Assembly (NCBI GenBank): GCA_964199315.1
Contig: OZ116704.1
Coordinates: 14,198,001-14,262,000, forward strand
Direction of reading: 5' to 3'
Source of the DNA: Orbicella franksi
Lineage: Eukaryota
Length of the DNA: 64,000 bases
The position numbers were made by a program, and so were the translations under genes. Shown in pieces: positions 1 through 1,706 of this stretch; the first letter of the stretch is position 1, and the number at the start of each line of letters is the position of its first letter. The notes under the pieces were generated by a model. The model saw only the letters and a list, made by a program, of their open reading frames with translations, had not been told where the DNA came from and did no database searches.

Positions 1-1706
1 TAGCGTTCTCGTCTTCCCTCCAAATTGCGCCAATTCGGAACCCTCGTCTTCTACCAATGACAAAGTTCTCAAGGCCTCTTTGTTACATTCTGGTAACAGA
101 CCTTCGCTCATCAACTGACAGCAATCTTCCTCAGCTTCTTCGTCACAACTATTCCTTTCTTCGTCGTCGCGTGCTCTTTCGGCTGCCCAAACAATGTAGT
201 CGATTGGGTGGCTACCTAACCAAACTGCAGCCCTCTTCTTCGGATTTTGCAGACTCTTGAAAAAATAATTGCGAAGTCTTCTTTCCATGGCCAGTTGGTT
301 TTCCGGCTCGAATTGGAGTTTTCTTTACGCTCTTATGATCATTGGACAACGATTTATGAAGTATTTGGCTGTCCGGTGTTTCACTTCATATGCCGCCTAG
401 CCTCCCTGTGTGAGTATTTTGCAGTCGTCCATGTCAAGGTTTGATTCAGTCGCTTCGTCAATGAATATTACCTCAGTGTTGTGGGATATCATCGCTTTGT
501 TGAACACTTTTTGTTTGGTAAAGATTGCCACGTCGCTGTAATGAATGATACCCAAAACGGGCATGAAAAGACATGCATGTCTTTCGATCCGTTGTTAGTG
601 TCCCGCTAGGTATAGTACTTTGTGTTTGTGCTTCGTTTTGTTGAAGTTGAGCAGTTTAAGAAAATCCTCGCAGAATGAGGCGACCTCATTCTCGTTCAGA
701 CTGTTTTGGAGTACTAGTATTTCTATTTCTTTGTAATACTGGCGCTGCAGGGGTGTCTTGGGTCATAAGGACAAAACGGTCTGGGCGTTACAGTTCCAAT
801 GATGCTTTCCTGTATGACTTCTTAGAGAAAACGCCGTTCTCTTATCGACCAGCGCTGCCCTTCGTGGACCTCGATAAGATTATAGTCGATGGTGATTGGC
901 CGAATAACTTTCTCAGTAAGGATCTGAGAGTATATCGATTACGCGCTTCATGTCTTTGAGCAGGCGTCCTTTAAATTGTTCATTTGCGGCCAGGATATTG
1001 ATAAATGCTCGCGGATCACAATTGTACTGGTAGGCACACCGGGAAGCTGGCTTTTTCTTGTATATTTTCCCTCTATGAAGTACGTAGTACGACTTCTTCA
1101 TGGAAATTCCGATGTCATTTATCAATACCGTAGATTGCCCGATGATCTCTGGGGTTCTTCTTTCTTGCCGCGGTTTTCAGCATTGTCCACACGAGCGCCA
1201 TTGAAGCCAAATCGATCGATCTGCAATTTGGCGTCTTCAATTTTGGACATTGCTGCCGACAAGGAAGGCTGAAACGACTGCTTCACTAGAACCACTCTCA
1301 CAACCAACTCCACTCCACACTCGTCGAGATCGATTTCATCTGGTTCTTCAATAAATTGATGCACTTCGTTTCGATAGCTTGATTGGTAAGAGGTGCGAAT
1401 TAAATCCTGCATAAAGCCATTTTTGTGATCTTTTAGCGTTTTGTATGAAATCAAATATGACTGAGATAAAATTTGCCGTACCTGATGTGCCAGCGTTTCT
1501 ACCCCACATTCGTGAAGGGTTCGATGGACTGTGAGGGGATTGGCAGGAACCCCGTTGGGTGTGGTCAACGCAATCCAATATACTACTGCCGGAGAGAGCT
1601 TTTTATCCACTATAGAGCGATGTTCAGCAATCCATTTTTGGCTAATAGTACCTGCCACCTGACTAGAAGTCACAGTTTCGTCATTGCTTTCCTCCGCTAT
1701 CTTCAT
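1..1706 (-). pseudogene. Degenerate superfamily-3 (SF3) helicase gene of an endogenous small-DNA-virus-like or mobile element; runs off the window edge
   Basis: Manual minus-strand translation of 1-600 gives ...FMPVLGIIHYSDVAIFTKQKVFNKAMISHNTEVIFIDEATESNLDMDDCKILTQGG*AAYEVKHRTAKYFINRCPMIIRA*RKLQFEPENQLAMERRLRNYFF. This has Walker B (VIFIDEA, 451-474), B' (K-x3-G...K), motif C (PMII) and an arginine finger (ERR). Stops at 397-399 and 325-327; Walker A region (about 575-612) is frameshifted. ORFs 913-1125 and 1122-1706 look like frameshifted upstream parts of the same gene. Confidence 0.7.

Follow-up and report, generated by a model that had tools for sequence, protein, structure and literature searches.

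A decayed SF3-helicase gene in the coral Orbicella franksi belongs to a family of capsid-less mobile elements that also carry a likely tyrosine recombinase gene

What is a viral-type helicase gene doing in a coral genome, and is it the remnant of a virus, of a cellular ATPase, or of a mobile element of another kind? The window analyzed here, a stretch of 64,000 nucleotides of Orbicella franksi (GCA_964199315.1, contig OZ116704.1, positions 14,198,001 to 14,262,000), begins within such a gene on its minus strand. An earlier note, written from the letters alone, had read it as a fossil SF3-helicase gene and had suggested an endogenous small-DNA-virus-like element as its source. The identification of the gene was borne out: Walker B (VIFIDE), B′, motif C and the arginine finger (MERR), all named in the note, are read in one frame between 759 and 4 on the minus strand, and the intact coral homologue P0293 matched window positions 1–2200 with 256, 172 and 95 bits, versus a maximum of 26 bits over 200 shuffles. 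In a Pfam scan of pieces of the window, the only match was DUF5906 (E 0.039).

The gene (hereafter Rep) is larger than the extent of 1..1706 first assigned to it; it starts with an ATG at 2124, runs past window base 1, and ends approximately 217 bases left of the window, as judged by tblastn to intact copies. Its TATA box (2161–2168, minus strand) lies exactly where it had been claimed, and in natural intact copies of families A and D a TATA-like box precedes the ATG by much the same distance. Exon 1 (1923–2124, with an in-frame stop at 2121) is 45% identical to family A exon 1 and corresponds to residues 4–109 of P0293 by tblastn. The suspected spliced 5′ exon was likewise upheld: a GT..AG intron 1 of 120 nt (1803–1922) has its donor GT at 1922–1921 and its acceptor AG at 1804–1803, and the coral gene models P0130 and P0293 join the same two exons. 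Exon 2 (1481–1802; 51–53% to family A exon 2 by tblastn), which has a frame change near 1700, encodes strands of an N-terminal alpha/beta, origin-binding-like domain. Homology to exon 2 stops near 1480–1467 and resumes in exon 3 at 1445, leaving an intron 2 stump (1446–1480); comparison with intact copies indicates that most of intron 2 and the start of exon 3 have been deleted. The first part of exon 3 (760–1445; 46–63% by tblastn) contains an invariant KD motif, a linker and a helical/collar region according to the alignment, and the SF3 helicase domain with its acidic tail occupies 1–759 and continues left of the window. The N-terminal region, previously described as unique, is conserved across the element family. 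Upstream of the TATA box, a two-copy repeat with a spacing of about 183 bp (2340–2580) may be a remnant of the left subterminal repeats.

The decay of this copy is evident, as the earlier note had seen; its tally of two stops and several frameshifts did not hold. We found five clear in-frame stops (2121, 824, 597, 399 and 327), a sixth (915) that coincides with a frame change, and at least five frame changes (near 1700, 1131, 912, 760 and 1–4). Walker A is scrambled (near 600–570), the other SF3 motifs are present, and the 195-codon open reading frame at 1709–1122 is partly accidental, crossing the intron 2 stump. The stretch is present in all four public DNA runs inspected (three studies, three organism labels), and is therefore not an assembly artefact; part of its breaks differ among these runs. 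Its closest DNA matches are only 68–69% identical and no close sister copy exists, which argues for an old insertion.

A search for an integrase gene to the left of the window, which the note had proposed, was productive. A plus-strand remnant of a tyrosine-recombinase-like (YR-like) gene (G000:C7, about 14196884–14197782), 45–67% identical to intact YRs by tblastn, begins at 218 bases to the left of the window, directly against the helicase tail; by comparison with family A, approximately 2 kb have been deleted between the two. Past the zinc finger of the remnant lies host DNA with a paralogue at window 55,900–57,300, and the similarity to this paralogue stops where the YR similarity starts, so the right end of the element has been deleted. 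With up to two mismatches allowed, the surroundings of the fossil yielded no terminal att motif, and its other boundary has no empty-site paralogue that could be found; its termini are lost. The window copy is thus, with near certainty, an old, deleted and dead member of a family of elements that pair a YR-like gene with an SF3-helicase gene. By itself it is an ordinary fossil, and its worth lies in the family it reveals.

We then collected copies of this family in the same genome, as the earlier note had advised. Helicase matches were obtained for 54 of the 56 candidates scored, 44 of them without a stop inside the match, both counts being lower bounds. A convergent YR-like gene lies within 5 kb of 51 of these 54 loci. 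Termini could be defined on complete copies (n = 14), which measure 7.2–12.1 kb, with family D at 7.8 kb. According to the open reading frame inventory, complete elements of families A (9.3 kb) and B (7.4 kb) hold only Rep, the YR-like gene, subterminal repeats, and repeat-derived or overlapping frames; no further unique frame of capsid size was found in either. Reverse transcriptase and DDE transposase were also absent from this inventory and from Pfam matches to the main frames. The viral type of the helicase stands, whereas the proposal of an endogenous small-DNA-virus-like element stands only in part: the parent is a repeated, capsid-less, two-gene mobile element. It has also been active recently, and its ends are att-like and one of its genes is YR-like, so that the label of transposon or integrative replicon suits it better than that of endogenous virus.

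Two simpler origins were rejected. A cellular ATPase does not agree with a gene that is multicopy, bounded by element ends and of SF3 fold, and a lone endogenous viral fragment does not agree with the adjoining YR remnant or with the pairing at 51 of 54 loci.

The second gene encodes about 570 amino acids, with a C2H2-like finger (recognized by eye), R-K-HxxR-H-Y motifs and a C-terminal Myb domain. The R, K, HxxR, H and Y residues occur in this order in all three family frames read, and these frames align in register, though weakly (21%, E 0.004), with a neighboring frame at locus L024 that itself has weak, sub-threshold Phage_integrase and SAM matches. No direct YR profile match was obtained in Pfam, NCBIfam or phage tblastn searches, the single-sequence model reached a pLDDT of 33.9, and one fused gene model was all that a search for longer homologues of the YR yielded. 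Motif order, the weak in-register alignment and the att-like ends together make it likely that the gene encodes a tyrosine recombinase. The L024 frame (L024:2–2371, plus strand) is a distinct YR-like frame of 790 amino acids with zinc fingers, located about 3 kb from a family A element; it is a second YR transposon lineage in this genome.

The left terminus of an element was read as GATCGTTTCCCAAA and the right one as TTTTGGGAAATGT-N4-GA; GA occurs once where tandem copies meet, and it is the only sequence repeated at both ends of an element. Joined, the ends form two imperfect inverted 12-bp arms around a 6-bp spacer ending in GA, an arms-plus-spacer layout like that given for YR sites (PMC3212892, in the available text). 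The left-end motif occurred at 65 sites (19 for the reversed control), eight of which were excluded for lack of element sequence behind them. Among the 57 left ends scored, 32 follow a simple repeat, 10 follow the right end of another element and 15 follow neither; as background, 122 of 7658 GA sites (1.6%) follow such a simple repeat. Families A and B, with spacers AAAGGA/GGAGGA, are located in AG-rich repeats. Family D is located in AAT/GAT repeats, and its right-end spacer, (C/T)AATGA, is as predicted from that target preference. Different families are joined at seven of the ten tandem junctions, a pattern that agrees better with integration at a resident end than with the formation of concatemers. 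Subterminal repeats were also observed (L030:462–1603 and 7996–9090). The terminal-arm core, TTCCCAAA, recurs in those of 63 bp, which may serve the recombinase as additional binding sites; the 267-bp repeats at the opposite end of the L030 element are internally palindromic.

We performed a detailed comparison of the Rep protein with known helicases. Relatives numbered 1051 at E values up to 0.001 among 50%-identity representatives, and Rep-homologous gene models are found in at least five coral genera (Desmophyllum, Montipora, Oculina, Porites and Acropora). The alignment of intact homologues retains Walker A, Walker B, B′, motif C and the arginine finger. The match to SF3 helicases by profile, which the note had called for, was found, as was one by fold. 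At the sequence level, PPV_E1_C passed its cut-off for 2 of 16 homologues and papillomavirus E1 was the best PDB match of the Rep family profile (E 0.0095), with zero matches in a single-sequence PDB search using an intact 799-aa frame. At the structural level, the model of homologue P0139 (pLDDT 80.6) was closest to SF3 helicases in all four fold searches; against 48,161 chains, the top 15 were all SF3 (Z 15.4–10.3), led by AAV2 Rep40 (Z 15.4, rmsd 4.7, 242 aligned), with the first other AAA+ protein at Z 8.6. The best Foldseek matches of the model include D5/primase-helicases.

Papillomavirus E1 and polyomavirus large T carry a non-catalytic HUH-like origin-binding domain before the SF3 helicase. 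The N-terminal domain of the P0139 model has the order beta-alpha-beta-beta-alpha-beta-alpha, and the alignments with SV40 large T, AAV Rep68 and a vientovirus Rep, each at full length, begin at model residue 8–11, with rmsd values above 12 Å. For SV40 large T, the alignment to model residues 10–512 (Z 10.6, rmsd 12.6) covers 352 residues, versus 244 for a helicase-only chain. The earlier note had found no HUH motif, and this absence was confirmed: among 19 aligned homologues, no conserved histidine pair or catalytic tyrosine was found at the matching strands and helix, and the KD motif is invariant. An Atlas search with the N-terminal 265 residues returned nothing usable. Modeling and analogy therewith suggest an HUH-like, apparently non-catalytic origin-binding domain in the manner of E1 and large T. 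Structural identity to E1 and large T is only 8–17%, and the helicases of AAV and SaPI and those of D5 type reach equal or higher scores, so that E1 need not be the closest relative of Rep. More distant homologues (P0167, P0215, P0224, P0245 and P0265; 28–35% identity) have a different conserved C-terminal motif and lie on contigs of 2.6–5.3 kb, which could be transcripts, related transposons or small viruses.

Rep and the YR-like gene are both under purifying selection between families; for the helicase core, pN is 0.08–0.38 versus a saturated pS of 0.80–0.93. Intron 2, 333 nt in intact copies, appears spliced in RNA contigs from two of three RNA runs (two studies) and not in a DNA run, the RNA libraries being ones that may contain DNA; no splicing of intron 1 was seen in three RNA runs on an intact copy. 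The two genes have discordant identities between families (A–B, 54% for the helicase core and 97% for YR; D–C, 85% and 70%), which points to exchange of modules. Furthermore, 23 of the 74 YR loci have no helicase. At 13 YR loci the left end of the element lies about 2 kb from the YR gene with the helicase missing, and in all four of these Rep-less loci inspected the entire Rep gene has been cleanly deleted, with both ends and the left palindromes still in place; two share breakpoints though they lie at different sites. It follows that Rep is not required in cis, and it might be wholly dispensable. Since such deletion copies still spread, the helicase either acts in trans or is accessory. One Rep-less derivative, L106 (G000:C7, about 26,089,000–26,093,900), lies between two similar sequences of about 30 bp, unlike the usual 2-bp core.

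The reading we lean toward, and regard as somewhat probable, is a CryptonV-like, capsid-less element with YR and Rep that is excised as a circle, copied outside the chromosome with the help of Rep, and re-inserted at GA in microsatellites. The recombinase would recombine the two ends, forming an att-like site, and release the circle; Rep would bind and unwind an origin, for which the palindromic repeats close to the left end are the likely candidate, and so open it to host polymerases; and the recombinase would then insert circles either into simple repeats, at GA, or next to a resident element, at its right end. Rep supplied in trans would keep Rep-less deletion derivatives mobile. No circle was observed, junction reads being indistinguishable from those of tandem copies. 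A more far-reaching version, which we offer only tentatively and at less than an even chance, would make these elements a new class of animal mobile element: capsid-less integrative replicons in which an E1/large-T-like initiator-helicase amplifies the circle, a microsatellite-homing recombinase cuts it out and inserts it again, and Rep and YR modules of different families are swapped in tandem arrays.

The strongest competitor, which we consider unlikely though it deserves weight, is a YR transposon of CryptonV type whose SF3 protein would serve as an accessory ATPase, or persist as long-kept cargo, instead of acting as a replicase, with conceivable roles in target capture, unwinding of the repeat target or remodeling of the recombination complex. 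The Rep-less derivatives, with their clean ends, microsatellite locations and recurrent breakpoints, agree with this view, as do the exchange of Rep and YR modules between families and the description of Cryptons that gain copies without a helicase (PMC9977147, in the available text). Against it, the structural neighbors of Rep are all replicative SF3 helicases, purifying selection on Rep is strong in all families compared, and Rep is present at 51 of 74 YR loci, where it faces the palindromic region that the derivatives keep. Another reading is a small dsDNA virus (or satellite) infecting corals, in integrated form, that obtains its capsid from a helper virus or has lost the capsid gene in this lineage; in its favor, the Rep is of viral type, its distant homologues (28–35%) sit on contigs of 2.6–5.3 kb, and capsid-bearing E1-like cressviruses are reported from anemones in the available text of PMC11071296. 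We judge this origin improbable, given that complete A and B elements have neither a capsid frame nor room for one, that introns, a specific target site and non-autonomous derivatives are characteristic of transposons, and that two viral-contig and two metagenome-contig scans (pattern-based and weak) found no relatives.

The least probable of the readings, to which we give very little credence, is a rolling-circle element akin to CRESS viruses, parvoviruses or Helitrons, in which the N-terminal domain nicks DNA and the recombinase resolves or integrates the products. It would account for the HUH-like topology, for the full-length alignment of the AAV and vientovirus Reps, and for the hairpin-capable palindromes near the left end. 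The 19 aligned homologues have no conserved HUH histidines or catalytic tyrosine, however, both ends of the element are precise, and 7 of 10 tandems join different families. Returning to the circle-copying element that we favor, its parts can be set against systems already described.

SaPI/P4-like islands and YR transposons of the Tn916/CTnDOT type are excised and integrated by a YR, with SF3-driven circle amplification and tolerance of mismatched spacers at minimal core homology among their known features, which the coral element, as read here, would share. Unlike these prokaryotic integrative replicons, the coral element is eukaryotic and contains introns, and no primase, helper-phage or conjugation genes were seen in it. 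It resembles papillomavirus E1 and polyomavirus large T in placing an SF3 helicase behind a domain that may be HUH-like and is apparently non-catalytic, and differs in having neither capsid nor E2, in its link with a YR and in its presence at many genomic sites. Among transposons, the nearest is CryptonV, reportedly described by Kapitonov and Jurka in 2012 (Repbase Reports 12:2034). The coral element shares with it a cnidarian host, the character of a YR DNA transposon and insertion in microsatellites; judged by published descriptions, it differs in its spliced SF3 Rep gene, att-like inverted arms and 2-bp core. As far as the accessible text of PMC8869645 goes, CryptonV comprises target-specific cnidarian YR DNA transposons, with some families specific for microsatellites; the name is also listed in the text available from PMC4455052 and PMC5753468, and none of the accessible sources attributes a helicase gene to it. 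The Crypton description in PMC3212892 predates CryptonV, and its available text does not contain the word helicase and gives 4–6-bp terminal direct repeats or none; compared with it, YR is here not the sole DNA-transaction enzyme and only GA is repeated at the ends.

Viruses that combine similar genes are considerably larger. According to the available portions of the sources, coral polintoviruses with a YR or a helicase are large and capsid-bearing (PMC11131425), Polinton-like viruses span about 14–40 kb (PMC12220804), and the latter use a YR for integration and a helicase for replication in eukaryotic hosts (PMC11131425, PMC4642659), as proposed here for the coral element; the coral element, in contrast, is 7–12 kb in size, with two genes, no virion genes and no recognized primase domain. 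Endogenous nimaviruses, as presented in the accessible part of PMC10871703, combine C2H2, SAM-like and YR domains and insert in telomere repeats or 28S rDNA. Their C2H2 + YR architecture and simple-repeat insertion are like those of the coral element, and unlike it they are large viruses with structural genes. A literature search whose scope stopped short of subscription journals and Repbase Reports returned no description of an animal transposon with YR and SF3 genes; the chance that such an element has already been catalogued we put at about one in three. The family is an apparently undescribed variant of YR transposon, recently active and equipped with an initiator helicase of viral type.

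Cryptons are thought to excise as circles, and how they increase in copy number is presented as open in the available text of PMC9977147. An element family with its own SF3 initiator offers a testable answer to this question of copy gain, and young intact copies are present in this genome. The family also ties YR transposons to the replication module of small animal DNA viruses; if the replicative reading is true, it would be a counterpart, among transposons, to the small DNA tumor viruses and would account for the copy gain of YR transposons. The recombinase, homing to simple repeats with a short core, is of interest as an integration enzyme.

Elsewhere in the window, an open reading frame at 10361–11998 (plus strand) matches Lyase_N and Lyase_catalyt, with a partial duplicate upstream (a similar frame at 6629–7132); we take it to be chondroitin/polysaccharide lyase family 8-like, and it is possibly a bacterial-type gene. 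Tandem segmental duplications with a spacing of about 9–11 kb occupy about 28,000–57,000 and recur at L011/L012, and nearby exons match Ig and Fibrinogen_C domains, which suggests an immune-type gene cluster around the fossil. A high-copy repeat end and several inverted-repeat (MITE-like) elements were also observed (2624–2664; 3873–4428; 3200–3305 with 5276–5380; 19604–20510), one of the MITE-like elements having perfect arms of 285 nt.
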